Shown: positions 50,784 through 62,556 of the stretch, piece by piece | Position numbering within the stretch: position 1 is the stretch's first letter | Layout of the letters: every line of letters begins with the position of its first letter | Source: Escherichia phage dw-ec | Length of the DNA stretch: 64,000 bases | Sequence record: OL739525.1 | Direction: 5' to 3' (one strand) | Notes under the pieces: model-generated | What the model saw: the letters and a program-made list of their open reading frames with translations, nothing else | What the model was told of the DNA's origin: nothing | Database searches by the model: none | Made by a program: the position numbers and the translations under genes

Positions 50784-50820
50784 AAGTTTATAAATGAGAT
50801 TGATTCTTATTTAATAAGGT

Positions 50821-51365: not shown

Positions 51366-51474
51366 GGTGTCGCCCTTTCTTTGTTGTGCGCCCTGGTTGG
51401 CGCGGTAGAAAGATGATAGCCTTTTCCTTTATATATAGCAAGCAAAAAGAAAATAAAAAAGATTGAAAAAGTGG

Positions 51475-51503
51475 TTGACGTTCCTCACCTGGTAGCGTAG
51501 TAT
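51475..51503 (+). promoter_or_regulatory. sigma70-like promoter (TTGACG-17-TAGTAT)
   Basis: Upstream of 51639..51836. Confidence 0.4.
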
Positions 51504-51638
51504 TCATCTTGTCGAGGGGGGCGCGGCACAACGACAATAAAAAACAGGAGGGCGCAATGTAGGACGGGCAAAGGTGAGGATCTCCATAATCCACCGTCAA
51601 CCAACAAAAAACATCATTCATCACCTGGAGTTAAAATC

Positions 51639-51836
51639 ATGGCAACATTGCACATAGTAGCGAAAGCAGGACAAATCAGCGTCGTGGTAAACGGTTTTAC
51701 TGAGTTCAGTCATCCCCAGGATGATCATGAAACGGTTTTATCTTTCATTGATTCACTGTTAGAAATGGGAGTAATTACAGAAGACCAGCACGCTACAAAA
51801 TGCAAACGCGTTAATCAGATTGCAGGAATAGAATAA
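51639..51836 (+). CDS. hypothetical protein
   Basis: 65 aa ORF. Confidence 0.5.
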   Translation: MATLHIVAKAGQISVVVNGFTEFSHPQDDHETVLSFIDSLLEMGVITEDQHATKCKRVNQIAGIE

Positions 51837-51842
51837 AAAGTA

Positions 51843-51904
51843 TTGACAACAACCAACAACCTGATAAGATGTATCACATAGGGCGGCGGAATGGTCCACC
51901 GCTC
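51843..51904 (+). promoter_or_regulatory. promoter-leader cassette P1 (TTGACA-16-TAAGAT + leader stem-loop)
   Basis: -35 51843..51848, -10 51865..51870, then GTATCACATAGGGCGGCGGAATGGTCCACCGCTC hairpin and AGAAGAGAG leader. Confidence 0.7.
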
Positions 51905-51927
51905 ACAACAGAAGAGAGATTATAATC

Positions 51928-52200
51928 ATGGCATCATATAGCGCAACAATGATCGTAGCTGGCACCACTGGTAAACCTATGAGCGGTGGCGGATCTTTCG
52001 CAAATATCAACATTGACGGGCGTTTATCCCTGGACGCAGCGATCACCGTGGCGCGGGAAACATTTAAGAAAGAATGTAAATTCAATAAACAAGATTATCT
52101 CGGTTTTGCTATTGAAAAAACCGCGCGTTTTGTTGATTATAAAAGCCCAAAAATGGTTGATACTACACTAAAAGCGCAAGATGTAGCGTTTTTGCTTTAA
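51928..52200 (+). CDS. hypothetical early protein
   Basis: 90 aa ORF downstream of P1. Confidence 0.55.
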   Translation: MASYSATMIVAGTTGKPMSGGGSFANINIDGRLSLDAAITVARETFKKECKFNKQDYLGFAIEKTARFVDYKSPKMVDTTLKAQDVAFLL

Positions 52201-52203
52201 GGC

Positions 52204-52259
52204 TTGACATTAACGAATAATTTGTTAATATGTTACATAAAGCGGGAATAGTTCCCGCT
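52204..52259 (+). promoter_or_regulatory. promoter-leader cassette P2
   Basis: TTGACA, TAATAT, hairpin GCGGGAA-tag-TTCCCGC. Confidence 0.65.
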
Positions 52260-52276
52260 ATTTGTAAGGTGGTAGA

Positions 52277-52534
52277 ATGTTTTACATCAAATTAAAAGGT
52301 CACGTGATCGCGTTCAAAGATAACGCTTTTTACAGATTAGCAAAATATGCGTTAATACATCCCCACTATGTTTATATAAGGGGGCGTGATGAAATAAATA
52401 TCTTTGATCAAACAACATGCGAAAACATCGAGATCCGCAAGGTTGGCGTACGTGATTATCGTACATCTTTCTACCCTTGCAAGGATTCAGCAAGTCTTTT
52501 CAAAGTATGCCAATTGTTGAAAAAAGGTGGTTAA
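52277..52534 (+). CDS. hypothetical early protein
   Basis: 85 aa ORF. Confidence 0.55.
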   Translation: MFYIKLKGHVIAFKDNAFYRLAKYALIHPHYVYIRGRDEINIFDQTTCENIEIRKVGVRDYRTSFYPCKDSASLFKVCQLLKKGG

Positions 52535-52535
52535 T

Positions 52536-53093
52536 ATGGGCCGCGAATATGTGATCCAGTCTTGGGTAAAACATGAAGCAGATGATCCGCGCATCATTCC
52601 CGATCATCTTATCGATGAATCCACGGGATATAGCGGTGAGCAAATAGGTAACAGATTAGCACGTAGTAACGGCAACGTAAAAGCGCGTTATGTGCGCCCT
52701 GGTTGGCTGGCAAATGGTAATGCTGATTTATCCAGTGCGGAAGATGCGAGCGACGGCGCGAAAGATAATCCTTTGTACAAAGTTGATCCGGCTTTTCGTG
52801 TCCTGGATGAATACCCCAGCAAGATAGCGGCGCTCGATCAGGCCCTGGAAAGTAAGCGCATCACCTGGACCGCTTACAACATGGCAAAAAACGTACTTGA
52901 TGGTAAATTGATTCAAGCTGAAAGAAAATTAGCCAAAATTGCAGCCATAGCCCAGGAGGAAGACGAGGAGACAACGGAAGAGGAAGAGTACGAAGAGATC
53001 CCGCCGTTGTTGTGTGTTGATGCTTTTCCTGATTATCAGCCGACAGAGGAAGAAAAAAGGATCGCACTAGAAAACTTTGAAAATAGTCTTTGA
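52536..53093 (+). CDS. hypothetical early protein with acidic C-terminal region
   Basis: ATG at 52536 after AGGTGG; E-rich segment. Confidence 0.55.
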   Translation: MGREYVIQSWVKHEADDPRIIPDHLIDESTGYSGEQIGNRLARSNGNVKARYVRPGWLANGNADLSSAEDASDGAKDNPLYKVDPAFRVLDEYPSKIAALDQALESKRITWTAYNMAKNVLDGKLIQAERKLAKIAAIAQEEDEETTEEEEYEEIPPLLCVDAFPDYQPTEEEKRIALENFENSL

Positions 53094-53148
53094 CATATCG
53101 CCGCCACTGGCATAATATTTACCACGTAGGGCGGCAATGGTGCCGCTC
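53090..53148 (+). promoter_or_regulatory. promoter-leader cassette P3
   Basis: TTGACA-17-TAATAT, hairpin GCGGCA-atgg-TGCCGC. Confidence 0.65.
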
Positions 53149-53175
53149 ATAGTAAAATTATGCAAGAGGTTTGCA

Positions 53176-53271
53176 ATGATTAATAAAGAAAATAGCTTGA
53201 CGGTTGGAACGATTAACGCTATCATTTTCGCCGTTCCATTTTGGGTTGTAGTAGCGGCTATTATTTTCTAA
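53176..53271 (+). CDS. small hydrophobic peptide (31 aa)
   Basis: Not in ORF track; ATG after AAGAGG; MINKENSLTVGTINAIIFAVPFWVVVAAIIF; lies between cassettes P3 and P4. Confidence 0.35.
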   Translation: MINKENSLTVGTINAIIFAVPFWVVVAAIIF

Positions 53272-53280
53272 AAAATATTC

Positions 53281-53341
53281 TTGACAACGTTTTTTAATCT
53301 GATAAGATGTATCACATAGGGCGGCGGAATACTTCCCCGCC
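53281..53341 (+). promoter_or_regulatory. promoter-leader cassette P4
   Basis: TTGACA-16-TAAGAT, GTATCACATAGGGCGGCGGAATACTTCCCCGCC. Confidence 0.65.
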
Positions 53342-53362
53342 AAAACAAAAAAGGGTAACACA

Positions 53363-53725
53363 ATGAGCAAGCAAATCAGTACTATCATGTTTAATCTGGT
53401 ATCTTTCCGCGATGATATGAAAAATTTACCACGTGAAACGGTTGATATTCATGTTTCAGCTTATCGCGCCCTTATTGACATGTTACCGCTAAAACGTGAT
53501 CAACATGCCGCTAATATGATGCTTAATGCTATGCTTAAAAAGATGATTCAAACGGATCTCACCCTGGCATATGAGTATCAAGGGCGCTTATATGCAACTT
53601 ACAACAAAGCGGTACCTGGTTTGGGAAGTACCGAAGAGTTGCACGGCTTAAACCTGGATCAAAACACTTGGGATAGTATGCGCCGCGTTATGGTATGGGC
53701 CGAAAGCGGTAAAATTTACGAATAA
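53363..53725 (+). CDS. hypothetical early protein
   Basis: 120 aa ORF. Confidence 0.55.
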   Translation: MSKQISTIMFNLVSFRDDMKNLPRETVDIHVSAYRALIDMLPLKRDQHAANMMLNAMLKKMIQTDLTLAYEYQGRLYATYNKAVPGLGSTEELHGLNLDQNTWDSMRRVMVWAESGKIYE

Positions 53726-53731
53726 AAACGG

Positions 53732-53788
53732 TTGACACTGTTTAAACTTCTGGTATAGTTTATCACGTAGGGCGGCAATGGTGCCGCC
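53732..53788 (+). promoter_or_regulatory. promoter-leader cassette P5
   Basis: TTGACA-16-TATAGT, hairpin GGCGGCA-atgg-TGCCGCC. Confidence 0.65.
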
Positions 53789-53808
53789 AACAATAAAAGG
53801 TTAACATC

Positions 53809-53988
53809 ATGGCTATCATTGCAAAAACTGAGATTATAGGTTTAGATTCGATCCTCCTGGCTTATGAGGAAACTTTAAAAATGTATATAGTGACCTATGG
53901 TGATTATGTGCGTGAATACGAATACATTGATCTTGCTTTCGAATGTTACATTCGCCAGGTCAATAAAGCCTATAACGATTATCGTTAA
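53809..53988 (+). CDS. hypothetical early protein (59 aa)
   Basis: Not in ORF track; starts MAI like neighbouring cassette genes; hand-translated. Confidence 0.45.
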   Translation: MAIIAKTEIIGLDSILLAYEETLKMYIVTYGDYVREYEYIDLAFECYIRQVNKAYNDYR

Positions 53989-54007
53989 AAGTTTTAGTCT
54001 TATACTA

Positions 54008-54060
54008 TTGACAATGAGTGATAGTATAAGCATAATAACTTTTATCGGGAATACTTCCCA
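54008..54060 (+). promoter_or_regulatory. promoter-leader cassette P6
   Basis: TTGACA-17-CATAAT, hairpin GGGAA-tac-TTCCC. Confidence 0.6.
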
Positions 54061-54085
54061 CTAACCAAAAAGAGAGAGTGACACC

Positions 54086-54451
54086 ATGGCTATTAATATC
54101 AATGTTTCCGCTTATGCTACCCTGGCTAACACGGCTAAAATTGAATTATCCAGCATTGAGGCGGTGCATATTAGCGCCCGTCGCTGGTTTCAACGGTCCT
54201 ACGGTAACACATATTTTTCTTTAATGGTTGACGTTGAGATCGGCGGTAAACTGATCGAGGTGGTTAACGTTCCGTTTCAATATGGCTATGGTGATCATTT
54301 TGATACCGTCGCCCTGGAAGAATTTAGCAAGGTTATCAACCTTGAGGGCAAGGAATTTTCACGCGGCGCGTATCTTTCCCGTTTTTGCCGTGACAATGGG
54401 ATCACTGTATACAGTCATGCAAGCGATGTAAAACGTAAAAAAGATTTATAA
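54086..54451 (+). CDS. hypothetical early protein
   Basis: 121 aa ORF. Confidence 0.55.
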   Translation: MAININVSAYATLANTAKIELSSIEAVHISARRWFQRSYGNTYFSLMVDVEIGGKLIEVVNVPFQYGYGDHFDTVALEEFSKVINLEGKEFSRGAYLSRFCRDNGITVYSHASDVKRKKDL

Positions 54452-54456
54452 AAGCA

Positions 54457-54517
54457 TTGACAGCACGAATAAAAAGAGTAAACTGTATTACATAGAGAGC
54501 GGGAATAGTTCCCGCCT
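54457..54517 (+). promoter_or_regulatory. promoter-leader cassette P7
   Basis: TTGACA-16-TAAACT, GTATTACATAGAGAGCGGGAATAGTTCCCGCC. Confidence 0.65.
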
Positions 54518-54539
54518 CATTCAAAGAGAGATTATCATC

Positions 54540-54779
54540 ATGGCTATTACTAAAACTTACAACGGTCACAAAAACAAAACTCACTGGAATGTAAGCCTTT
54601 GGATTAATAACGATGAATCGTTATACCGGTTGGCCCAAGATTTTATTAACGCTAATGCTAATCGTAATGATGCGGCGCGGGATATGATGCTTTTTCTGGA
54701 ACAAACTGGACAAGATAAAACGCCAGACGGTTTCAAATATAGCACTACTGCGATCCGTGCCGCGATGGTTGGAATGTAA
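54540..54779 (+). CDS. hypothetical early protein
   Basis: 79 aa ORF. Confidence 0.55.
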   Translation: MAITKTYNGHKNKTHWNVSLWINNDESLYRLAQDFINANANRNDAARDMMLFLEQTGQDKTPDGFKYSTTAIRAAMVGM

Positions 54780-54788
54780 TAAAAACAG

Positions 54789-54849
54789 TTGACAACGTTT
54801 AAAATTAGTGTAAGATGTATCACATAGGGCGGGAAGTGGTTTCCCGCCA
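54789..54849 (+). promoter_or_regulatory. promoter-leader cassette P8
   Basis: TTGACA-16-TAAGAT, hairpin GGCGGGAA-gtggt-TTCCCGCC. Confidence 0.65.
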
Positions 54850-54869
54850 AAACAGAGAGATTAAAGATT

Positions 54870-55097
54870 ATGGCTATCAATATTGTTCGCGTATCCGGCA
54901 CCGTTGGCACTTCCCAGGTCATTGCAGTTGTAACAAACAAAAAGATTAATGATGTATGTGAGATCTTGAATAAGTGGGCTGTTGCTAATTTTGGGGAATA
55001 TGCAAGCGTCGAGTACATCGAATCCTACCAGGTGCCAACCATCAGCCTAACCGATCTCAACGTTGATCGCCTGTTATGCCTGGATGAATTAATCTGA
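54870..55097 (+). CDS. hypothetical early protein
   Basis: 75 aa ORF. Confidence 0.55.
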   Translation: MAINIVRVSGTVGTSQVIAVVTNKKINDVCEILNKWAVANFGEYASVEYIESYQVPTISLTDLNVDRLLCLDELI

Positions 55098-55106
55098 AAA
55101 AGATTG

Positions 55107-55164
55107 TTGACACGGGAAAGAAAAAGAGTAAACTGTATTACGTAGGGCGGCAATAGTGCCGCTC
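55107..55164 (+). promoter_or_regulatory. promoter-leader cassette P9
   Basis: TTGACA-16-TAAACT, hairpin GCGGCA-atag-TGCCGC. Confidence 0.65.
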
Positions 55165-55187
55165 ACAACAGAAGAGAGATTATCACG

Positions 55188-55400
55188 ATGGCTAATATCC
55201 GCACACTGTTAAAAAATGCAAGTCAAGTTTTATTTTCTGATCACGATCATTTTAATAAAGATATTACAGGCGTGAAGAATATCAAAGATGTAAAAAGTGT
55301 TATGGGTATATATTGCAATGTTAAACGTGTTGGAACGTTCGGTGATAAAGTATTGTATCAATCAGGTGATTACAATTTTACTTTGACGATTATTTCATAA
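55188..55400 (+). CDS. hypothetical early protein
   Basis: 70 aa ORF. Confidence 0.55.
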   Translation: MANIRTLLKNASQVLFSDHDHFNKDITGVKNIKDVKSVMGIYCNVKRVGTFGDKVLYQSGDYNFTLTIIS

Positions 55401-55406
55401 AACCGC

Positions 55407-55468
55407 TTGCAATACTGCAAAAATAAAGTAAACTGTATTACATCAAGGCGGCGGAATGGTCCACCGCC
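55407..55468 (+). promoter_or_regulatory. promoter-leader cassette P10
   Basis: TTGCAA-16-TAAACT, hairpin GGCGGCGGAATGGTCCACCGCC. Confidence 0.6.
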
Positions 55469-55492
55469 TAACAAAGAGAAGAGGAAAACATC

Positions 55493-55660
55493 ATGATCAC
55501 TTTCGCTACCCGTGAAGCCGCTCGCAACGTTGCCCGTAAAGTTAACGCCGCCAACCTGGGCGCTACGTTTAAAGCACCTGTAAAAGATGAATCAGGAAAA
55601 TGGATCTTCCCTGGTCTGCGTCACGCTGATAAGCTAGGCACTTTAAGCCTTAAAAAATAA
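55493..55660 (+). CDS. hypothetical early protein (55 aa)
   Basis: Not in ORF track; MITFATREAARNVARKV...; shares MITFA start with 55735..55956. Confidence 0.45.
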   Translation: MITFATREAARNVARKVNAANLGATFKAPVKDESGKWIFPGLRHADKLGTLSLKK

Positions 55661-55663
55661 TCG

Positions 55664-55701
55664 TTGACTTTTCGTTATAGCGCCCATTATAAGGCGCTAT
55701 A
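55664..55701 (+). promoter_or_regulatory. promoter-like element P11 with distinct hairpin
   Basis: TTGACT then AGCGCC-cattataa-GGCGCT hairpin overlapping the -10 region. Confidence 0.4.
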
Positions 55702-55734
55702 GAGAAGAGAAACCACTACTAACAAGGAAACATC

Positions 55735-55956
55735 ATGATCACTTTCGCTATTGTCGCCGTTGTTGCTGGTCAGGTTTACGTAAACGATACATTCACCACA
55801 GAAGACAAGGCCGCAGGAGACATAACCGCCGTTTACAATGAGTGCAAGGCAGTAGAAAGAATGTTAGCGCCTTGTATGCTAATGAGTGAACGCCAGGACG
55901 GGATAACAGTATTTACTAACATTGAAACAGGGTACCAAATGGTAGTAACAAAATAA
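55735..55956 (+). CDS. hypothetical early protein
   Basis: 73 aa ORF. Confidence 0.5.
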   Translation: MITFAIVAVVAGQVYVNDTFTTEDKAAGDITAVYNECKAVERMLAPCMLMSERQDGITVFTNIETGYQMVVTK

Positions 55957-55959
55957 AGC

Positions 55960-56018
55960 TTGACACGGATTTAATTTTCAGTAAACTGTTACACGTAGAG
56001 CGGGAATAGTTCCCGCTC
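55960..56018 (+). promoter_or_regulatory. promoter-leader cassette P12
   Basis: TTGACA-17-TAAACT, hairpin GCGGGAA-tag-TTCCCGC. Confidence 0.65.
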
Positions 56019-56035
56019 AAAAAGAGAGAAAGACC

Positions 56036-56389
56036 ATGAAAGCACAAAATGCAATTAAAGAGTACATCCTTGCCGCTATCGATTTTAATGATTACGGTAT
56101 TACAACCGAAAAAGAGAAGATCGCGGAATTGATGCGCCGTTTTAATTCCGAGTACTGGTACCCTGATAACCAATCACGTTTTAATTATAGTATTGTTAAA
56201 GCACTTGCATCATGGTTACAAGGTTTGCCATCAGATATCAATATCGCTTTCGAATATTGGGAAATTGATCGCCTGTTAACATCCTGGGGATACATTAAAG
56301 AGAATAGCAGCGATGATAAAATCCAACGAGAAAGGGAAAATTATTGGCTTTATATTGCAGGCGTGATCCTTGCTTGCTCTTATGAATGA
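56036..56389 (+). CDS. hypothetical early protein
   Basis: 117 aa ORF. Confidence 0.55.
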   Translation: MKAQNAIKEYILAAIDFNDYGITTEKEKIAELMRRFNSEYWYPDNQSRFNYSIVKALASWLQGLPSDINIAFEYWEIDRLLTSWGYIKENSSDDKIQRERENYWLYIAGVILACSYE

Positions 56390-56395
56390 TAAACC

Positions 56396-56449
56396 TTGAC
56401 AATTTTACAAAACAGTTTAAATTAATAATATAGCGGCAATGGTACCGCT
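56396..56449 (+). promoter_or_regulatory. promoter-leader cassette P13
   Basis: TTGACA, AT-rich -10 region, hairpin GCGGCA-atgg-TACCGC (one mismatch). Confidence 0.5.
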
Positions 56450-56468
56450 CATATAAAGAGGAAACAAA

Positions 56469-56615
56469 ATGAATACATCTAATCGCGCAGAAAAAATTCA
56501 ATCTTCCAAGATCCGCAAGGCCTGGAATGAGGAAGTGATCCGCAAAGGCGACAAGCGCAATAAAACAAAGCGCGGGAAGAGTGACAAATATAATTGGATG
56601 GATTTAGAGAATTAA
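56469..56615 (+). CDS. small basic protein (48 aa)
   Basis: Not in ORF track; ATG after AAGAGGAAA; Lys/Arg-rich. Confidence 0.4.
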   Translation: MNTSNRAEKIQSSKIRKAWNEEVIRKGDKRNKTKRGKSDKYNWMDLEN

Positions 56616-56621
56616 CATAAC

Positions 56622-56650
56622 AAGGGCGCACCAAGCGCCCTTTCTTTTTA
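56622..56650 (+). terminator. rho-independent terminator
   Basis: GGGCGC-accaa-GCGCCC followed by TTTCTTTTT; near-identical copies at 61964 and 62529. Confidence 0.7.
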
Positions 56651-56670
56651 CATGTAGAGGATAAACAAAA

Positions 56671-56856
56671 ATGACTTTAAACGAGCTTAAAACAGCGTAC
56701 AGCGCAACATTAAAAATAGCCGTGCGTTACCGTGACGAATACGGTTTTATTGCGCAGGGCGTGATCCTGGGCTTTTCTGACGATGGTTTGATCTATGTTG
56801 ATGCACATTATAACAAGGTTAAACCGGAAAACGTTATTAGCATAAAATATCTTTAA
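56671..56856 (+). CDS. hypothetical early protein
   Basis: 61 aa ORF. Confidence 0.5.
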   Translation: MTLNELKTAYSATLKIAVRYRDEYGFIAQGVILGFSDDGLIYVDAHYNKVKPENVISIKYL

Positions 56857-56862
56857 AAACGG

Positions 56863-56922
56863 TTGACACCATAACCGGACCTGTTAAACTGTATTACATC
56901 AGGCGGGGAATAGTTCCCCACC
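56863..56922 (+). promoter_or_regulatory. promoter-leader cassette P14
   Basis: TTGACA-16-TAAACT, hairpin GGGGAA-tag-TTCCCC. Confidence 0.65.
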
Positions 56923-56941
56923 ATACAAAAAGGTAAATATT

Positions 56942-57148
56942 ATGATCACCGCAAAACAAGAAAAAATCATTATCGACGTTGCAGCCGTTGCCGCTATCGC
57001 TATTATTGGATCTTATTATGATACCCGTTTCCCGTCGGCTATGCATGAGGTCGCCGCCGTTGCATCAGTTGGCGTACTGTTTTACGTTGGTAAACGCTAT
57101 TTATCACCAATGATTAACAAGCTGACACCGTGGAAAAATAAAGGTTGA
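56942..57148 (+). CDS. small membrane protein
   Basis: 68 aa; hydrophobic segment IIIDVAAVAAIAIIG. Confidence 0.5.
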   Translation: MITAKQEKIIIDVAAVAAIAIIGSYYDTRFPSAMHEVAAVASVGVLFYVGKRYLSPMINKLTPWKNKG

Positions 57149-57201
57149 TCCTGTTTTACATTGTGTTATAGTTATCGTGTAGGGCGGCAATGGTGCCGCG
57201 C
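57145..57201 (+). promoter_or_regulatory. promoter-leader cassette P15
   Basis: TTGATC-16-TATAGT, hairpin GCGGCA-atgg-TGCCGC. Confidence 0.55.
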
Positions 57202-57219
57202 CCCTTTGAGGATGCAATC

Positions 57220-57504
57220 ATGAGTAAAGCTAACACCGTGCTAATGTTTTCCCTGATTAATGATCTCGCTTACTTGTCCAACATGACGCAGGAGGGTAAC
57301 ACATTAACGGCAACATTCACCAATAAGCTTGACCGAGTGATCATCATCTCACTGAAAACAGTTAGTAAAGGCTTTTACTCGTTAGCTTATCATTGGATCA
57401 CCGATACCGATGAGACAAGCCAGGACTATAGCGCCCCTTTCCCTGAATCAATGGCACGGGAGATCATCGCCGCCGTTATAAATGATGGTTTGTTTACTGC
57501 ATAA
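57220..57504 (+). CDS. hypothetical early protein
   Basis: ATG at 57220 after GAGGA; track start 57190 lies inside the leader hairpin. Confidence 0.5.
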   Translation: MSKANTVLMFSLINDLAYLSNMTQEGNTLTATFTNKLDRVIIISLKTVSKGFYSLAYHWITDTDETSQDYSAPFPESMAREIIAAVINDGLFTA

Positions 57505-57521
57505 ATAATTTAGAAAAAGGC

Positions 57522-57578
57522 TTGCAATCATTTTGAGATAGTGTATATTTAATTCATAGGGCGGCGGGAATAGTTCCC
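57522..57578 (+). promoter_or_regulatory. promoter-leader cassette P16
   Basis: TTGCAA, TATATT, hairpin GGGAA-tag-TTCCC. Confidence 0.55.
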
Positions 57579-57601
57579 AAAGCAAACGAGAGGATTACAC
57601 G

Positions 57602-57721
57602 ATGAGCAAGTACACAGTAGAATACACGGTAGAAAATCCGGCAGTATCCGAAGGTAAAAAGATGACATTTGCCATCAGTATAATCGCTTTCGTTGTCACT
57701 ATCTTATCAATCATCTTATAA
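57602..57721 (+). CDS. small membrane peptide (39 aa)
   Basis: Not in ORF track; ATG after GAGAGGA; C-terminal TM helix FAISIIAFVVTILSIIL. Confidence 0.35.
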   Translation: MSKYTVEYTVENPAVSEGKKMTFAISIIAFVVTILSIIL

Positions 57722-57731
57722 GGTGCACACC

Positions 57732-57893
57732 ATGAAAACAACAGACATTATCAAAGAGATCGCCCTTGCCGCTGGCGTTGAAGTCGAGGAAGTGATCGCG
57801 CTCAATCTTACAGAAAACGATCTGCGCAACTATGAAGCGGAAAGCGTGAAAGCAAGCGGCGCGGTCCTGGTATATGATCCGGCTAACAAGTAA
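57732..57893 (+). CDS. hypothetical early protein
   Basis: ATG at 57732 after AAGGTG. Confidence 0.45.
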   Translation: MKTTDIIKEIALAAGVEVEEVIALNLTENDLRNYEAESVKASGAVLVYDPANK

Positions 57894-57902
57894 GGGGATA
57901 AC

Positions 57903-58013
57903 ATGAATCCGAAAGATATGCAAGCATGGAAAGGGTACGACGATCTAAGCGCCTTGCGCAATAAGTCAAGCCGTAACCTTAGACGGTTGGAAGCAAAGAA
58001 AAAGAAAAAATAG
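57903..58013 (+). CDS. small basic protein (36 aa)
   Basis: Not in ORF track; ATG after AAGGGGA; Lys-rich tail. Confidence 0.3.
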   Translation: MNPKDMQAWKGYDDLSALRNKSSRNLRRLEAKKKKK

Positions 58014-58014
58014 T

Positions 58015-58071
58015 TTGACAAGTCCGCCTAGTCTGATAATATGTATCTTGTAGGGCGGCAATGGTGCCGCT
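58015..58071 (+). promoter_or_regulatory. promoter-leader cassette P17
   Basis: TTGACA-16-TAATAT, hairpin GCGGCA-atgg-TGCCGC. Confidence 0.65.
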
Positions 58072-58091
58072 CACAAGAAGAGAGAAAAATC

Positions 58092-58376
58092 ATGAAAATC
58101 ACAAAAAGCCTAACTAATTATGCAGCACGTCGCGGATTATGTTTAACCGTTGAAAACTTAGGGAAAGAAGACTTTTTGTGTTTTTGGGAGCTTGAAAATG
58201 ATTGCGAGTGGATGTTTTCTTATTCTATCTGCGAAGATCAAAACGGTTGTTTGTTAACCTGGCGCGGTAATATCTATTTACCGGAAGAAATTAAAGAAGA
58301 GTTACCAGGTACGATCATGACAGAGAGACAGCTTAAGGAAATGATTAATTTTGTAGGGCAAAACATTAAAAAATAA
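58092..58376 (+). CDS. hypothetical early protein
   Basis: ATG at 58092 (track start 58041 overlaps the leader hairpin). Confidence 0.5.
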   Translation: MKITKSLTNYAARRGLCLTVENLGKEDFLCFWELENDCEWMFSYSICEDQNGCLLTWRGNIYLPEEIKEELPGTIMTERQLKEMINFVGQNIKK

Positions 58377-58377
58377 T

Positions 58378-58440
58378 TTGACAGCACGCAAATAACGTAG
58401 TAAAGTTTATTACATAGAGCGGCGGAATGGTCCACCGCTC
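58378..58440 (+). promoter_or_regulatory. promoter-leader cassette P18
   Basis: TTGACA-17-TAAAGT, hairpin GCGGCGGAATGGTCCACCGC. Confidence 0.65.
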
Positions 58441-58461
58441 ACAACAGAAGAGAAACAAATC

Positions 58462-58632
58462 ATGATCCCGACTATGTTTTATGTATCGCGCAAAGGTCAC
58501 AATATTTTTTGGTCTGAAGATTTAAATGAAGCTATGACGTTTGCCCGTGATCGTGTTGCTATCGGTGGCGTTAACATCACCGTAACCGATGAAAACGGCA
58601 TTGAATACTATAACGGCGACAATGAAGAGTAA
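58462..58632 (+). CDS. hypothetical early protein (56 aa)
   Basis: Not in ORF track; hand-translated without stops. Confidence 0.45.
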   Translation: MIPTMFYVSRKGHNIFWSEDLNEAMTFARDRVAIGGVNITVTDENGIEYYNGDNEE

Positions 58633-58639
58633 TCAACAA

Positions 58640-58657
58640 GGCGGGATTAATCCCGCC
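58640..58657 (+). other. intergenic stem-loop (GGCGGGAT-ta-ATCCCGCC)
   Basis: Perfect 8-bp stem between two small genes; no U-tract. Confidence 0.5.
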
Positions 58658-58676
58658 TGTATTAAAGGGCAATATA

Positions 58677-58814
58677 ATGAAAACTTTCAACGCAACAGCC
58701 TCGACAATTGGTTATATTATTACAGTACAAGCCGTTGACCTGGTAGCGGCAGCAAACAAGATTAAAAAAATGATCCCAACAGGCAGCGAATTTTCCGTTT
58801 GGGAAGTAAAATAA
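58677..58814 (+). CDS. hypothetical early protein (45 aa)
   Basis: Not in ORF track; hand-translated. Confidence 0.4.
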   Translation: MKTFNATASTIGYIITVQAVDLVAAANKIKKMIPTGSEFSVWEVK

Positions 58815-58817
58815 AGC

Positions 58818-58880
58818 TTGACAATAATTTGTTATCTAGTAAAGTGTATTACGTAGGGCGGGGCAATGGTGCAACGCCCA
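58818..58880 (+). promoter_or_regulatory. promoter-leader cassette P19
   Basis: TTGACA-16-TAAAGT, GTATTACGTAGGGCGGGGCAATGGTGCAACGCCC. Confidence 0.6.
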
Positions 58881-58897
58881 TTAATGAGGGTAGAATC

Positions 58898-59002
58898 ATG
58901 TTAGAGAAAATTTTCACGGTTGCAGTGGTTGGCCTGGCGTTATCGGTTGGAGTAGTTGCAACTATGGCTAATATGATCCTATCTTCCCACGGTATCGGTT
59001 AA
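58898..59002 (+). CDS. small membrane peptide (34 aa)
   Basis: ATG at 58898 after GAGGGTAGAA; MLEKIFTVAVVGLALSVGVVATMANMILSSHGIG. Confidence 0.35.
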   Translation: MLEKIFTVAVVGLALSVGVVATMANMILSSHGIG

Positions 59003-59003
59003 G

Positions 59004-59228
59004 GTGAAACAAATGATCACGAACAAAACAGGCAAAACGGAATTTTTACGCGGCTTACAAGTTGGTAAGCCTGAGATCTGGCATTGCACGAAGTCCGCGC
59101 ATAATGAAATGAAAGATTTTACCGCTACTTTACAACGTGTTAAAATATCTATCACACAGAAAAAAGCCTTGTTAGTAGTAGAAAACGAGATCCCGCAAAC
59201 TATTATTATTGTCGAGCGTACAGCATGA
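59004..59228 (+). CDS. hypothetical early protein
   Basis: 74 aa ORF. Confidence 0.5.
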   Translation: MKQMITNKTGKTEFLRGLQVGKPEIWHCTKSAHNEMKDFTATLQRVKISITQKKALLVVENEIPQTIIIVERTA

Positions 59229-59611
59229 AAACAGAAATCATTATTGAAATCATCAACGGCTATAAAGAAGCCTTTATTTTTGCTGAATCAGCAAGGGATC
59301 ATGAAGGTAATTTTATTGATAACTTAGACGATTATGATTTTTCTCCTAGCGCGGATCAACGGATCGCCCAGGATGTAACAGCCTTTATTAATGCTAATCT
59401 TGCCGCTATCTCTGAGGCAATGAGCGACGGCGCAACAGCCAACCAGATCGGGAATGATTTACATTTTACCCGTAACGGTCACGGCGTAGGCTTTTGGGAT
59501 CGCCCTGAAATATACACCACTAACACGGCGAACCGCCTAACCAATGCAGCTAAGTTTATGCCGAACGTGTCGGCTTACATTGGTGAAGATAATTTGATTT
59601 ATATTGAATAA
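59225..59611 (+). CDS. hypothetical early protein
   Basis: 128 aa ORF. Confidence 0.55.
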   Translation: MKTEIIIEIINGYKEAFIFAESARDHEGNFIDNLDDYDFSPSADQRIAQDVTAFINANLAAISEAMSDGATANQIGNDLHFTRNGHGVGFWDRPEIYTTNTANRLTNAAKFMPNVSAYIGEDNLIYIE

Positions 59612-59617
59612 AAAGTA

Positions 59618-59675
59618 TTGACACAGATCGCCAGTGTGATAATATTTACCACGTAGGGCGGCAATGGTGCCGCTC
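59618..59675 (+). promoter_or_regulatory. promoter-leader cassette P20
   Basis: TTGACA-16-TAATAT, hairpin GCGGCA-atgg-TGCCGC. Confidence 0.65.
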
Positions 59676-59694
59676 ACTGTAAAAGGTAAACATT

Positions 59695-59886
59695 ATGAAA
59701 ACTATCACCTATCTGGAATCGAATAACATGTTTTTTGCGCCCGTTGATGAAATCATCGAAGCATTAAACAACGAGGAAGGGATCAATGGTTTATCTTATA
59801 GCCAACTTTTAGGAATGGTTGCAGCAAATGCAGAGCTTGCTTACTATGTTGAAAATTTTGATGAAGCTGTAATCTTTACAAAATAA
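59695..59886 (+). CDS. hypothetical early protein
   Basis: 63 aa ORF. Confidence 0.5.
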   Translation: MKTITYLESNNMFFAPVDEIIEALNNEEGINGLSYSQLLGMVAANAELAYYVENFDEAVIFTK

Positions 59887-59889
59887 TCC

Positions 59890-59946
59890 TTGATCTAATC
59901 TCTTAAATAACTTATATTTAATGCGTAGGGCGGCAATGGTGCCGCC
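59890..59946 (+). promoter_or_regulatory. promoter-leader cassette P21
   Basis: TTGATC-17-TATATT, hairpin GGCGGCA-atgg-TGCCGCC. Confidence 0.55.
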
Positions 59947-59964
59947 GATAATGAGGAAAGTAAA

Positions 59965-60264
59965 ATGGAAACTATCGCTATTGTTACCGTAGAAAAACTG
60001 GTTGTTGGTGATGTATTCGCGTTAATGGTGCCTAACAGCAGCAAGCTGGGCGCTTATGAAGTAATGGATCATAAAAATGAATCATTTGGCGACGGTTGCA
60101 CAATGGCGGTAAAATCTTTAAAGGATGGAATCATCCGTCAAGCTAATTGGCACAAAGGAAATCAAGTCGGATTAATATCAGCTAATTTCTTGCCAGAAGA
60201 GCAAACGTTAGACCAACTGTCAGGCGGTAAGACGTTAGCCGAACTACTGGAAACAGCGATCTAA
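59965..60264 (+). CDS. hypothetical early protein
   Basis: 99 aa ORF. Confidence 0.55.
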   Translation: METIAIVTVEKLVVGDVFALMVPNSSKLGAYEVMDHKNESFGDGCTMAVKSLKDGIIRQANWHKGNQVGLISANFLPEEQTLDQLSGGKTLAELLETAI

Positions 60265-60272
60265 TCAACAAA

Positions 60273-60288
60273 GGGGCGGCAACGCCCC
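60273..60288 (+). other. intergenic stem-loop (GGGGCG-gcaa-CGCCCC)
   Basis: 6-bp GC stem with GNRA-type loop, no U-tract. Confidence 0.5.
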
Positions 60289-60308
60289 ACGTCAGAAAGG
60301 AAAAGATT

Positions 60309-60545
60309 ATGAGTATTGCAACAGTATTAAACGCCGTTAAAACCGCTGAATCATCCGGCTTACATGTTGAGCTTATAGATCAACCAGGTGGCGATCTCCT
60401 GGTCCAGGTTTACCCGCCGAAAGTAGGGGATGATTATTATTGGTGCTATTCCGATACGTTCGAACAAGTAGACACGAAAGCGATCACGGCTTTTATTTTA
60501 AAAGCTATTGAAGAAAATAATTTTCATTATAACATCAATCAATAA
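60309..60545 (+). CDS. hypothetical early protein
   Basis: 78 aa ORF. Confidence 0.5.
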   Translation: MSIATVLNAVKTAESSGLHVELIDQPGGDLLVQVYPPKVGDDYYWCYSDTFEQVDTKAITAFILKAIEENNFHYNINQ

Positions 60546-60554
60546 ACCATAAGC

Positions 60555-60570
60555 GGGGCGGTAACGCCCC
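60555..60570 (+). other. intergenic stem-loop (GGGGCG-gtaa-CGCCCC)
   Basis: Same stem as 60273 with a different GNRA loop. Confidence 0.5.
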
Positions 60571-60600
60571 ATTAAACGCAATAGGAAGAGGCTAGAAAGC

Positions 60601-60885
60601 ATGAAAAAGATGATCGCAGTAGTTGCCCTGGTTGTTGGTATTAACGCGCCTGTAATGGCGAAAGAGTTGCCAGAATCCATCACGTTAACCGATATTAACG
60701 CAGTGAACCGGATCGGCGTTAATTATCGCCTATGCCTTGCCGCTAAAACTTTCCAGGACGGCACAACAGAGTACTACGGATTCGAGGGTGTCCGGTGCGG
60801 TGAGCTTGCACGCGACCTTAAGGAAGATCCAGACCTTGAGGCCATACCGATGACCGTAAACGGTAAAGCCCAGGTAAACCGCTAA
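60601..60885 (+). CDS. secreted/periplasmic protein
   Basis: Signal peptide MKKMIAVVALVVGINAPVMA. Confidence 0.55.
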   Translation: MKKMIAVVALVVGINAPVMAKELPESITLTDINAVNRIGVNYRLCLAAKTFQDGTTEYYGFEGVRCGELARDLKEDPDLEAIPMTVNGKAQVNR

Positions 60886-60887
60886 CC

Positions 60888-61022
60888 ATGAGAAAGGTAA
60901 TCATCACAATGGGGATCGTAGTAGCAACGCTGGCGCTTATCCCCTTCCTGGTTGAATATGTGCTGATTAATGTTGTCCTGGTAGTCAGTGACCTATTGGA
61001 AACGGTTGGCAACTGGTTTTAA
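60888..61022 (+). CDS. small membrane peptide (44 aa)
   Basis: Not in ORF track; ATG after GAGAAAGG; two hydrophobic segments. Confidence 0.35.
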   Translation: MRKVIITMGIVVATLALIPFLVEYVLINVVLVVSDLLETVGNWF

Positions 61023-61197
61023 GATAAATAAACAGGGCTTGCTTTTGTCCTGTTTTTTGTTATGCTTATTGAACGGGCGGCACCTGGGAGCAGGGGAAGA
61101 TAATCACCGGAAGACCCCGCTATATATTGATAGCTAACATCTATCAAACAACAAAACATCAAAGGAATAAACTATCAAATCTTTACAATCCCACCTA

Positions 61198-61254
61198 TTG
61201 ACACCGGATCACGCTTACATTATTATTTATCACGTAGGGCGGGAATGTTTCCCA
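61198..61254 (+). promoter_or_regulatory. promoter-leader cassette P22
   Basis: TTGACA-17-TATTAT, hairpin GGGAA-tgt-TTCCC. Confidence 0.6.
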
Positions 61255-61274
61255 CCTGATTTAGGAGTCATATC

Positions 61275-61508
61275 ATGATCGAACAAATTAAAAGCACTAC
61301 ACCAAATGTTAACGGTAATGTTTCTCACTTTATCGGGGATAATGAAAGAGGTACACCGTACGCCGCCGTAACCGTTCAACCTAACGGGGATTATTGGTTT
61401 ACCGTGTACGGATCTTACTCTTTTGGACGTTCGGCACATGATAAGATCTTGCAAGTGGTTAAGCCTACTGGGAAGAATATCACAGCAGAAAAATTTTATA
61501 AAAAATAA
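61275..61508 (+). CDS. hypothetical early protein
   Basis: 77 aa ORF. Confidence 0.5.
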   Translation: MIEQIKSTTPNVNGNVSHFIGDNERGTPYAAVTVQPNGDYWFTVYGSYSFGRSAHDKILQVVKPTGKNITAEKFYKK

Positions 61509-61569
61509 CTTGCTTTATAGCTCCTGTTAACTTATAGTTATTGCGTAGGGCGAGCAATACAGCAAGCCC
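61509..61569 (+). promoter_or_regulatory. promoter-leader cassette P23 (divergent variant)
   Basis: TTGCTT, TATAGT, then TTGCGTAGGGCGAGCAATACAGCAAGCCC with alternative pairing. Confidence 0.45.
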
Positions 61570-61586
61570 ACAAAGAGGAAAATAAA

Positions 61587-61955
61587 ATGAGCAAATCAGC
61601 AATTAAAGCACTTGAAAAAGCACAAGAAGTGATCGCAACGTCAACCACTGGCGCAAATATTAATTTGGTCGCTTATCTGGAAGATGAAACTATCCGTAAA
61701 AATTGGCGTAATGCTGATTTACTGGCTTGCTTATTGATTAATAGTGTCGCTAATGCTTTCCAGTGTGAAACAGCCGAGAGCCTGGAGGAAAACTTGTTTG
61801 ATAATATGGATCAAGCCATTGAAACCTATATACAATCAAACTTGGATAGCTGGAACAGTAAAACATGGCCCGACAATTTACGCGATACAACTGATCAACT
61901 GATCCGCCTTGCCGTGATGGTTGAACGCGATAACGTTTACAACAGCACAAAGTAA
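61587..61955 (+). CDS. hypothetical early protein
   Basis: 122 aa ORF. Confidence 0.55.
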   Translation: MSKSAIKALEKAQEVIATSTTGANINLVAYLEDETIRKNWRNADLLACLLINSVANAFQCETAESLEENLFDNMDQAIETYIQSNLDSWNSKTWPDNLRDTTDQLIRLAVMVERDNVYNSTK

Positions 61956-61963
61956 GATTATAC

Positions 61964-61990
61964 AAGGGGCGCACTAAGCGCCCTTTAACG
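61964..61990 (+). terminator. rho-independent terminator
   Basis: GGGGCGC-actaa-GCGCCCC followed by TTTAACG. Confidence 0.55.
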
Positions 61991-62011
61991 TAAAGAAATG
62001 TAAATAATGCG

Positions 62012-62050
62012 CTATCCCCTATTGACAGGGGATCGGCGTTATATTATATT
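62012..62050 (+). promoter_or_regulatory. promoter P24 with -35 embedded in a palindrome
   Basis: TCCCCT-attgac-AGGGGA hairpin contains TTGACA (62022..62027); 17 nt later TATATT. Confidence 0.45.
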
Positions 62051-62095
62051 TAACTCACTGGCAGCAAACAACGAAACGAAACAAAGGATAACACT

Positions 62096-62515
62096 ATGAA
62101 CATTAAATCAAATAATCCAGCTTACTCCTTCGATAACGCTTTTTGTCACGGTAGCGCCGCCAAAGGCTTCGAAATCGATGGTAAATTGGTTATCGTGAAC
62201 GTTGACGGGGAAGAGGTTGCAGTGTATCCGGTAAACGATGTTAAAAGCCGTTTACAATGCCGTATGGATGTTACCGCATATCAGCTTGATCCGATCCGTG
62301 TAGTTGCCCTGGTATTAGAGGAAGAGATCAAAGCAATGCATCACAGTAATAAGTTTATTGGTGACGCGCAGGATAATATGAACGTTTGCCGCCATAAAGT
62401 TAATGAAGCACTGAAAGAATGCGGTTTTAAGGATCTGATGATCAAACGTGATGAAAAATTCCGCTTTCGTAATGACCTGGCAAACCGGATCTACTCAATC
62501 TATGAAGCGTTATAA
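62096..62515 (+). CDS. hypothetical early protein
   Basis: 139 aa ORF, last gene before the non-coding A+C-rich region. Confidence 0.55.
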   Translation: MNIKSNNPAYSFDNAFCHGSAAKGFEIDGKLVIVNVDGEEVAVYPVNDVKSRLQCRMDVTAYQLDPIRVVALVLEEEIKAMHHSNKFIGDAQDNMNVCRHKVNEALKECGFKDLMIKRDEKFRFRNDLANRIYSIYEAL

Positions 62516-62528
62516 TTGACAACAAAAC

Positions 62529-62556
62529 AAGGGCGCACCAAGCGCCCTTTCTTTTT
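62529..62556 (+). terminator. rho-independent terminator
   Basis: GGGCGC-accaa-GCGCCC followed by TTTCTTTTT; identical core to 56622. Confidence 0.7.

Follow-up and report, generated by a model that had tools for sequence, protein, structure and literature searches.

Within the 64,000-nucleotide stretch of Escherichia phage dw-ec analysed here (sequence record OL739525.1, referred to as the window), the segment from 51475 to 62100 holds an array of repeated intergenic units, each of which places a predicted sigma-70-type promoter, a GC-rich hairpin and a CA/purine leader directly before the start codon of a small gene. On balance, the comparisons described below lean towards a reading in which every unit is a portable, self-contained early-expression cassette, with the hairpin stabilising the mRNA and the conserved block serving as a recombination linker. 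The units and their counterparts in related phages resemble the promoter-early stem-loop (PeSL) cassettes of the T4-like phages RB49, phi1, PST and nt-1 (Arbiol et al., 2010, PMC2839356; Comeau et al., 2014, PMC4122927); an initial annotation of this DNA, which had proposed the array, missed this resemblance as well as the spread of the layout across phage subfamilies.

Architecture and extent of the array

Over its full length, the segment 51475-62100 shares 98% identity with Escherichia phage BI-EHEC and 95-97% with many Phapecoctavirus genomes, and the window belongs to Phapecoctavirus, the phAPEC8-like myoviruses with genomes of ~150 kb in the subfamily Stephanstirmvirinae. In annotated relatives the equivalent region carries 30-39 "hypothetical proteins" and no promoter annotations. 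The initial annotation had put the number of cassettes at about 24; the array itself is real, but scans for the pattern, for repeats and for promoters converge on 22 canonical cassettes, all on the + strand between 51843 and 61586, which are about 80 bp long and recur at spacings of 300-900 bp. The location given for the array is also borne out by the motif ACRTAGRGCGG, which occurs 14 times with at most one mismatch, always on the + strand and between 51876 and 61242, whereas 1.35 occurrences are expected and none of 100 shuffles reached 14.

Each unit consists, in this order, of an A-tract, TTGACA, a spacer of 16-17 nt, TAnnnT, about 10 nt (YACRTAG), the GC hairpin, the CA/purine leader and ATG, and the alignment consensus reads AAAAAnnnTTGACA-(16-17 nt)-TAnnnT-(~7 nt)-YAC-R-TAGGGCGG...CCGC-CA/purine leader-ATG. 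The hexamers, the spacers and the YACRTAGRGCGG block are as the initial annotation had described them. TTGACA is perfect in 17 of the 22 cassettes and, together with the 16-17 nt spacer, the -10 element TAnnnT and the AT-rich AAAAAnnnTTGACA upstream, gives these predicted promoters a consensus sigma-70-type make-up. The stem begins 9-11 nt past the -10 in nearly all units, and 15-27 nt separate its end from the ATG. The intergenic gap is wholly occupied by the cassette, with the upstream stop codon lying 0-10 nt before the -35 or within it; at 53091-53093 and 57146-57148 the TGA in the -35 hexamer (TTGACA and TTGATC, respectively) is itself the stop codon of the upstream gene, so tightly do gene and cassette abut. 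A further candidate signal, ATCACATAGGG, was considered as a T7-type promoter core (CACTATAGGG) and rejected by inspection, its register being off by one and the upstream specificity region absent.

Some 35 small open reading frames (ORFs) lie in 51639-62515, in keeping with the earlier count of about 35 small genes. Ten array genes were scanned and had no match in Pfam, and the nine of them that were also run against PHROGs fell into families of unknown function only. The gene content of the array differs among close relatives. The N-termini MAI... and MITFA..., to which the initial annotation had drawn attention, do recur: MAI, MAN or MAS opens six array genes and MIT opens three.

A covariance model (R1) seeded on seven equal-length units gave 21 significant matches in the array and one match on the minus strand at 29440-29371. 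On the other 98 kb of the close relative phage DE16 it gave zero matches, so that the element is specific to the early array gene set plus TerC. The minus-strand match corresponds to an isolated cassette (29362-29437, - strand; -35 at 29437-29432, -10 TAAGAT at 29415-29410, hairpin GCGGGGAATAGTTCCCCGC at 29397-29379) that precedes ORF 28387-29361 (-), which encodes a 324-aa TerC-family protein (Pfam PF03741, E = 3e-40). The earlier claim that one copy on the opposite strand lies upstream of TerC is thereby upheld, at a site outside the array. The 88-aa minus-strand gene adjoining the array was considered as TerC and rejected by the Pfam scan.

Structure and possible role of the hairpin

In 19 of the 22 cassettes the hairpin is a stable GC-rich stem-loop (-10 to -17 kcal/mol), whereas it is weak or degenerate in the other three (54008, 56396 and 57522). 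Folding from the predicted start makes it the sole stable element of the predicted leaders: it begins at nt 3-5 of the predicted 5' untranslated regions (UTRs), and 15 of 20 leaders have z-scores of -2.2 to -5.4 when compared with dinucleotide shuffles. The three stem versions described initially are present, and further versions were found. Run on 13 sources, the model gave 141 matches, made up of 140 cassettes and one opposite-strand reading of an inverted hairpin. Among these 140 cassettes there are 74 distinct hairpin sequences, nearly all of which fold at -7 to -16 kcal/mol, and recurrent alleles include GGCAATRGTGCC, GGGAATAGTTCCC, GGGAARTGGTTTCCC, CGGAATGGTCCA, GGGGAGAA..TTCTCCCC, GGGCGACACAACGTCGCCC and GGGGCGACAAGCGCCCC.

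A plain MAFFT alignment of the hairpin region followed by RNAalifold returned no structure, because stem lengths differ, and was replaced by the seven-unit covariance model. In a set of 47 cassettes, 94.2% of stem positions are paired and six of eight pairs show compensatory changes; among 124 distinct cassettes from 13 phages, 94.3% are standard pairs and seven of eight pairs have changed on both sides, in 90 alignment positions. Neither the observed covariation score nor the paired fraction was reached by any of 500 shuffles in either set, and in the 124-row set shifted registers collapse. Covariance modelling had been suggested with the initial annotation, and its outcome, with 94% of stem positions paired over 74 hairpin sequences, supports the proposal made there that selection would act on the structure of the hairpin rather than on its sequence. 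The conserved outer arms GCGG and CCGC are separated by a gap of 8-12 nt, which fits a stem of variable length and is awkward for a rigid dimeric DNA-binding protein.

The pair closing the loop is A-U in 38 of 38 cases in the 47-sequence set and in 99 of the 105 rows with letters at both positions in the 124-row set, the other six being GC in four rows and unpaired in two. On the sense strand, 139 of 140 cassettes have their loop in one orientation (AAURG) even though hairpins do become inverted (in phage SKA64 and in unit 55664), and G-U pairs are found there in 35 of 124 cassettes at one position. These sense-strand G-U pairs, the fixed loop orientation and the presence of promoterless hairpins 18-29 nt before three genes favour a role in RNA over one in DNA. 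The sole inverted loop in the 140 cassettes is that at 2520-2588 of SKA64 (L011), where the whole hairpin is flipped to GGCACTATTGCC, as against GGCAATAGTGCC in orthologues with the same promoter spacer. Evidence that the helix reaches as far as the first nucleotide, through pairing of R-U with A-Y beyond the stem, is suggestive only: U-A occurs in 31 of 47 cassettes and a terminal pair in 25 of 47, and clear covariation is absent. The hairpins are not intrinsic terminators; none of the 22 is followed by a T-run on the + strand, whereas three true terminators nearby (56622, 61030 and 62529) carry T-runs. At the gathering threshold, none of the covariance models of Rfam 15 matched anywhere in the window, and within 50000-62600 there was no match with E <= 1 either. 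A host copy or mimic as the origin of the cassette was ruled out at the sensitivity of blastn, which found no match in 5,426 E. coli genomes.

A C followed by an A/G step 7-8 nt after the -10 is held in all groups examined (Phapecoctavirus, phi92, FV3, SSBI34 and jumbo phage UB), and by sigma-70 geometry, the only guide here, transcription most likely starts at this conserved purine, just before the hairpin. Such a start would leave 3-5 unpaired nt before the stem and none in the GUAGGG...CUCAC variants, where the first two nt also pair. In the mechanism that we propose, the UP-element-like A-tract and the near-consensus sigma-70 promoter would recruit the host RNA polymerase, which would start at the purine of YAC-R-TAG, 7-8 nt past the -10, and the mRNA would begin with those few free nt, if any, followed by a GC hairpin of 6-10 bp. 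The CA/purine leader of 15-27 nt, with its weak Shine-Dalgarno sequence, would then bring the hairpin to the 5' border of the area covered by the initiating ribosome. Since the hairpin would thus lie beside both the 5' end and the ribosome footprint, little naked RNA would be exposed to 5'-end-dependent decay (RppH, then RNase E), and the hairpin could act as a 5' stabiliser.

That the hairpin probably stabilises the mRNA, with protection from RNase E, follows from the rules of E. coli mRNA decay. A stable hairpin a few nt from the 5' end of an mRNA, followed by the ribosome-binding region, blocks 5'-end-dependent attack by RNase E, and Emory, Bouvet and Belasco reportedly found in 1992 that the 5'-terminal stem-loop of the E. 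coli ompA 5' UTR stabilises its mRNA. With a start at the predicted site, the cassettes would share with stabilisers of the ompA type a hairpin a few nt from the 5' end and a ribosome-binding region after it. They differ from ompA in that the hairpin is a repeated, exchangeable module with a conserved loop on ~22 phage transcripts, and in that its 5' end and its effect on half-life are predicted.

Several points weigh against a stabilising role and must temper this reading. In full-text literature on these phages no start-site, transcriptome, half-life or expression data were found, so that both its placement within the mRNA and any stabilisation by the hairpin are predictions, and with a start at position 6 instead of 8 there would be 5-6 unpaired nt and weaker protection. 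Terminators are lacking between the cassettes, and read-through transcripts would hold the hairpins internally. The three cassettes with weak hairpins still persist, and a conserved AURG loop with a near-invariant A-U closing pair is unneeded by a pure stability element. Sense and antisense strands fold equally well (mean -12.1 versus -11.9 kcal/mol, p = 0.3), so strand asymmetry cannot separate an RNA from a DNA role. The covariation counts, too, must be taken with caution: the model itself adjusted the alignments to the structure, the copies are akin to one another, and the variation is mostly exchange within a limited pool of hairpin alleles, so that independent compensatory events are far fewer than the positions counted.

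Alternatively, the conserved loop and its 5' flank may form the binding site of a specific factor. The hairpin would in that case be a recognition tag through which a dedicated trans-acting factor, encoded by the host or, as an early or middle protein, by the phage, controls the whole early set, by binding the 5' end of every early transcript or by binding RNA polymerase via the nascent RNA. The outcome could be timed shut-off, selective protection during the destruction of host mRNA by the phage, or processive antitermination along the array. We consider this rather unlikely, even though the AURG loop and its A-U closing pair are conserved as the stems change, the UAG that immediately precedes the stem is unpaired and hardly varies, the loops are not of especially stable kinds such as GNRA or UUCG, their orientation is kept, and the motif is limited to one gene set plus TerC. 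T4 Srd stimulates RNase E. A homologue of Srd in this phage group, which would fit a tag of this kind, is reported in the rV5 paper; near the divergent promoter at 43.7 kb, a search for an Srd-like or RNA-related protein found only domains of unknown function. No candidate binding protein was identified among the array genes tested, all of which fall into unknown-function families, some lineages have a different loop (for example ACAAC or ACAAG in SSBI34, PBES02 and phiWec179), and loop conservation could also reflect shared descent and exchange among few alleles. The sequence CGCUCACAACA was tried as boxA and rejected as a poor match in the wrong order relative to the hairpin. The lambda nut boxB, bound by the N protein, and the HK022 put RNAs are likewise short GC hairpins encoded just downstream of phage early promoters, and they act in the nascent RNA; the cassettes differ from them in lacking a correctly ordered boxA, the second stem-loop of put, any identified N-like protein and any Rfam match, and in having one hairpin per gene where nut and put have one per operon. 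We hold it doubtful, too, that the UAG flank, the A-U pair and the AURG loop make up an RNA "address label" read by a specific factor across rV5-like, phAPEC8-like and Asteriusvirus phages. If they did, tagged transcripts might be spared when host mRNA is exposed to RNase E by an Srd-like protein of the phage or, alternatively, be switched off at the early-to-middle transition, and any gene captured behind a cassette would be enrolled automatically.

It is improbable that the inverted repeat acts on DNA only, be it as the operator of an early-promoter repressor or as a cruciform or single-strand hairpin for a recombination or replication protein, with the cassette being mainly a recombination site, as has been speculated for PeSLs. 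The stems are near-perfect palindromes without strand asymmetry, their position, about +4 to +25, is one often taken by operators, crossovers have been placed within the hairpin or next to it, and the two whole-hairpin inversions point to hairpin-mediated DNA events. The 8-12 nt between the outer arms and the many stem sequences would, however, not suit one sequence-specific dimeric DNA binder, the G-U pairs on the sense strand and the conserved loop orientation speak against a role in DNA only, and ordinary homologous recombination between identical blocks of 20-45 bp explains the junctions with no dedicated enzyme needed. Less probable still is a terminator or attenuator that insulates each gene from transcription by upstream cassettes, as proposed for the PeSLs of RB49 and phi1, whose stem-loops lower downstream lacZ expression as much as a strong terminator does (PMC2839356). 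The cassettes do stand head to tail with no other terminators between most genes, but the hairpin lies downstream of its own promoter, where an efficient terminator would abort its own transcripts, and lacks the T-run; in the RB49 units it sits between -35 and -10, outside their own transcript, which is an insulator arrangement unlike that of the cassettes here. Least of all do we expect the hairpin to be a functionless passenger spread with a successful promoter by duplication and gene conversion. Cassettes do spread and exchange by recombination, and the hairpin has decayed in three copies, but neither the stem pairing maintained over 74 variants in at least three phage subfamilies or groups nor the fixed distances to the -10 and the ATG would be expected of a passenger.

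Recombination at the cassettes and their spread among phages

Besides a stabilising hairpin, the favoured reading includes exchange at the cassettes, one case of which lies at 59618-59964. In the window, the cassette at 59618, the gene 59695-59886 and the cassette at 59890 follow each other, whereas ESCO13 and phiWec179 lack the gene and have one chimeric cassette, which is identical to 59618 up to and through the hairpin and to 59890 afterwards. This two-sided identity places the crossover within the shared block CGTAGGGCGGCAATGGTGCCGC. Homology blocks shared with phiWec179 have 16 internal ends, of which 11 are situated in cassettes, and cassettes make up ~23% of the region; in the comparison with phi92, where gene order is shuffled, block ends likewise sit in cassettes. 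When cassettes are grouped by the same -35/-10 spacer, that is, by the same promoter copy, 18 of 27 groups contain more than one hairpin type; the gene at 51928, for instance, has three different hairpins among four phages, while its flanks are unchanged. The initial annotation had suggested gene capture by recombination at the conserved leader, and the crossover in the hairpin block, the breakpoints in cassettes and the hairpins swapped on identical promoters all support it. The neighbouring genes at 55493 and 55735 share only the leader and the first five codons (MITFA) before they diverge, which fits crossovers reaching just beyond the ATG; selection for efficient initiation would be an equally good explanation for the many genes that begin with ATG-GCT. 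The conserved block of 20-45 bp, comprising start site, hairpin and leader, offers sites at which homologous recombination inserts or deletes a gene with its cassette, reshuffles genes or exchanges hairpin alleles. Comparison between genomes shows that the block serves as a recombination linker, independently of any role in RNA.

The same layout was recovered, each time directly before small annotated genes, in phi92 and PHB05 (Justusliebigvirus), in FV3 and UPEC06 (Vequintavirinae), and also in Cronobacter PBES02 and Klebsiella KaOmega (both Certrevirus), Salmonella SSBI34 and the 353-kb Asteriusvirus phage UB. A hairpin with an internal loop like that of the cassette at 61510 precedes small genes in SSBI34, PBES02, KaOmega and jumbo phage UB (L007, 12006-12423), and hairpin alleles and at least one cassette-gene pair are common to these phage groups. 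This suggests cassette-linked gene traffic among very different phage groups (rV5-like, Certrevirus, Asteriusvirus). Array genes of SKA64 (L011), a Phapecoctavirus, are annotated as similar to proteins of the jumbo phage PBECO4, of phiTE and of Av05. A description of this hairpin was not found in full-text literature on related phages: the promoter table of the rV5 paper ends 7 nt past the -10, and the stem is never mentioned there, while the CBB paper gives RpoD-like promoters with UP elements only.

PeSLs are repeated intergenic units of a sigma-70-like promoter and a GC stem-loop that flank genes of unknown function, they mediate insertions and deletions from which chimeric units remain, and they form mini-circles (PMC2839356, PMC4122927). 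The cassettes match them in being intergenic repeats of ~80-100 bp composed of an AT-rich tract, a sigma-70-type promoter, a GC stem-loop, a Shine-Dalgarno sequence and an ATG, in their position before small genes of unknown function in a variable region, in indels between close relatives that leave one chimeric unit with the crossover in or near the stem-loop, and in serving as portable expression modules and recombination linkers. There is, in contrast, no sequence similarity, the best match of R1 on 100-150 kb of RB49 having E = 4.7. Direct comparison shows that RB49 units read TTGACAGGGGATC..GATCCCCTATAAT, in the form TTGACA-GGGGATC..GATCCCC-TATAAT. The GGGG...CCCC hairpin of the RB49 PeSLs, which was assigned a terminator role, thus lies in the -35/-10 spacer or overlaps a hexamer; a hairpin in the promoter spacer is outside the unit's own transcript, consistent with the published role. 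The cassettes of the window instead carry theirs downstream of the -10, at fixed distances from the -10 and the ATG, in the predicted 5' UTR, with no T-run and with a conserved AURG loop, and only the variant unit at 55664 has a hairpin that overlaps the -10. The lineages differ as well, being Stephanstirmvirinae, Vequintavirinae and Asteriusvirus here and T4-like phages in the case of PeSLs. Judged by sequence and layout, the family works like PeSLs yet is not homologous to them. The cassettes also recall the morons of lambdoid phages (Hendrix et al., 2000, discussed in PMC2839356), which are likewise single genes moving together with the signals for their expression. Morons, however, lack a conserved repeat on their flanks, are in most cases inserted in antisense and supposedly move by illegitimate recombination.

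These comparisons extend the PeSL idea, namely the diversification of accessory genes by recombination at standard promoter-hairpin linkers, past the T4-like phages, with PeSL-like linkers now in three further groups of large phages that infect E. coli and other enterobacteria, among them jumbo phages of 350 kb. As the hairpin lies inside the (predicted) transcript, the cassettes amount to ~74 natural, interchangeable 5' hairpins on otherwise similar strong promoters, a test bed for the effect of 5' structure on the stability and output of mRNA in the course of infection, from which compact expression parts might also be drawn. These genera are in wide use in phage therapy, and for its genomics the cassettes are markers of the early region and of the places where gene content is predicted to vary among isolates.

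Individual units and neighbouring sequence

The individual cassettes are described here from left to right, with each range starting at the first base of the -35 hexamer, with promoters as -35/spacer length/-10, and all on the + strand unless stated otherwise. The first cassette, 51843-51927 (TTGACA/16/TAAGAT; hairpin 51881-51904, GGGCGGCGGAATGGTCCACCGCTC), precedes a 90-aa gene at 51928 and is followed by 52204-52276 (TTGACA/16/TAATAT; hairpin 52241-52259, AGCGGGAATAGTTCCCGCT) before the gene at 52277 (85 aa). The cassette 53090-53175, one of the two whose -35 contains the upstream TGA, has TTGACA/17/TAATAT and the hairpin GGGCGGCAATGGTGCCGCTC at 53129-53148 ahead of a 31-aa gene at 53176, and 53281-53362 (TTGACA/16/TAAGAT; hairpin 53320-53341, GGCGGCGGAATACTTCCCCGCC) serves the gene at 53363 (120 aa). 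In 53732-53808 (TTGACA/16/TATAGT) the hairpin lies within 53767-53791 with the core GGCGGCAATGGTGCCGCC, and the gene at 53809 (59 aa) begins with MAII. The degenerate cassette 54008-54085 (TTGACA/17/CATAAT) has a weak hairpin, GGGAATACTTCCC, at 54047-54059 (-5.5 kcal/mol), precedes the gene at 54086 (121 aa, MAIN) and was missed by R1. Two further genes with MAI starts follow, at 54540 (79 aa, MAIT) behind 54457-54539 (TTGACA/16/TAAACT; hairpin 54495-54518, GAGAGCGGGAATAGTTCCCGCCTC) and at 54870 (75 aa, MAIN) behind 54789-54869 (TTGACA/16/TAAGAT; hairpin 54828-54848, GGCGGGAAGTGGTTTCCCGCC). The cassette 55107-55187 (TTGACA/16/TAAACT; hairpin 55142-55166, GTAGGGCGGCAATAGTGCCGCTCAC) stands before a 70-aa gene at 55188, and 55407-55492 (TTGCAA/16/TAAACT; hairpin 55446-55469, AGGCGGCGGAATGGTCCACCGCCT) before the 55-aa MITFA gene at 55493, whereupon 55960-56035 (TTGACA/16/TAAACT; hairpin 55998-56018, GAGCGGGAATAGTTCCCGCTC, z = -5.4) completes the first eleven, ahead of the gene at 56036 (117 aa).

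In the remaining eleven, 56396-56468 (TTGACA/16/TAAATT) has a hairpin at 56432-56449, AGCGGCAATGGTACCGCT, which one mismatch weakens, before the gene at 56469 (48 aa), and 56863-56941 (TTGACA/16/TAAACT; hairpin 56902-56922, GGCGGGGAATAGTTCCCCACC) precedes the gene at 56942 (68 aa). The second cassette with the upstream TGA inside its -35, 57145-57219 (TTGATC/16/TATAGT; hairpin 57182-57202, GGGCGGCAATGGTGCCGCGCC), serves a 94-aa gene at 57220; the degenerate 57522-57601 (TTGCAA/16/TATATT), with a partial hairpin GGGAATAGTTCCC within 57561-57583 and a 39-aa gene at 57602, was again missed by R1. There follow 58015-58091 (TTGACA/16/TAATAT; hairpin 58048-58076, core GGGCGGCAATGGTGCCGCTC) before the gene at 58092 (94 aa), 58378-58461 (TTGACA/17/TAAAGT; hairpin 58417-58440, GAGCGGCGGAATGGTCCACCGCTC) before the gene at 58462 (56 aa), and 58818-58897 (TTGACA/16/TAAAGT), whose hairpin at 58856-58879, GGGCGGGGCAATGGTGCAACGCCC, has an internal loop and whose gene at 58898 encodes 34 aa. 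The two partners of the recombination junction are 59618-59694 (TTGACA/16/TAATAT; hairpin 59653-59677, GTAGGGCGGCAATGGTGCCGCTCAC), the gene of which, 59695-59886, encodes 63 aa, and on the right-hand side 59890-59964 (TTGATC/17/TATATT; hairpin 59929-59946, GGCGGCAATGGTGCCGCC) with a 99-aa gene at 59965. The last two canonical cassettes are 61198-61274 (TTGACA/17/TATTAT; hairpin 61237-61257, GGGCGGGAATGTTTCCCACCT), before the gene at 61275 (77 aa), and 61510-61586 (TTGCTT/17/TATAGT; hairpin 61545-61571, GGGC-GA-GC..GC-AA-GCCC), before that at 61587 (122 aa).

Several units depart from this pattern. The variant promoter 55664-55734 (+) has the -35 TTGACT and a hairpin, TATAGCGCC-CATTATAA-GGCGCTATA (55676-55701), that overlaps the -10 upstream of the 73-aa MITFA gene at 55735. 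Its 8-nt loop is inverted relative to ESCO13 (L001, upstream of the gene at 7182), reading CATTATAA in the window and TTATAATG in ESCO13 between identical stems. The orientation in ESCO13 creates a perfect TATAAT with a 16-nt spacer, that in the window TATAAG with an 18-nt spacer, so this small loop inversion appears to alter promoter quality. The first + strand promoter of the array, 51475-51638 (TTGACG/17/TAGTAT), has a 135-nt leader without the canonical hairpin before the gene at 51639, and the last, 62022-62095 (+; TTGACA/17/TATATT), has a CA-rich leader, again with no hairpin, before the gene at 62096. The leader of the latter, AACGAAACGAAAC, resembles the leader ACCGAAACGAAA that follows many PeSL promoters of RB49 (L015), which may be convergence on a CA-rich translation leader. 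A divergent unit of like layout with a different hairpin, 51366-51441 (-; TTGCTA/17/TATCAT; hairpin 51403-51388, GCGCCAACCAGGGCGC), has a CA/purine leader, precedes the 88-aa gene 51099-51365 and was missed by R1. Promoterless GC hairpins on the + strand lie at 58639-58658 (AGGCGGGATTAATCCCGCCT), 18 nt before the ATG at 58677, at 60273-60288 (GGGGCGGCAACGCCCC), 20 nt before the ATG at 60309, and at 60554-60571 (CGGGGCGGTAACGCCCCA), 29 nt before the ATG at 60601; in all three a + strand T-run is absent, and their spacing to the ATG matches that in the cassettes.

Just upstream of the array, 47976-49202 encodes a 408-aa protein with four CapR-homology repeats and a treble-clef zinc finger, and 49750-50283 encodes a NADAR-domain protein. 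The following 800 nt, 50285-51100, contain no convincing ORFs, have AT-rich direct repeats at 50511-50720 and include a near-consensus minus-strand promoter (51096-51068) directed into a GC-rich segment, while 51002-51599 is 95.8% identical to phi92, compared with ~70-87% for neighbouring genes; a conserved non-coding RNA might be encoded here, or the sequence might serve replication or packaging. The array is flanked on either side by clusters of repeats similar to the Fur box of E. coli (AATGATAATCATTCTCATTT), at 50735-50850, 63588-63616 and 63767-63795. Repeats of the first cluster have a 29-nt spacing, and of all these repeats only 50819-50837 fits the 19-nt Fur consensus with at most three mismatches; these clusters may serve iron-responsive control or the titration of host Fur. 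Finally, one terminator sequence, AACAAGGGCGCACCAAGCGCCCTTTCTTTTT, is reused at 56614-56649, 61957-61992 and 62521-62556, two of the copies being 97% identical and the third 69%.

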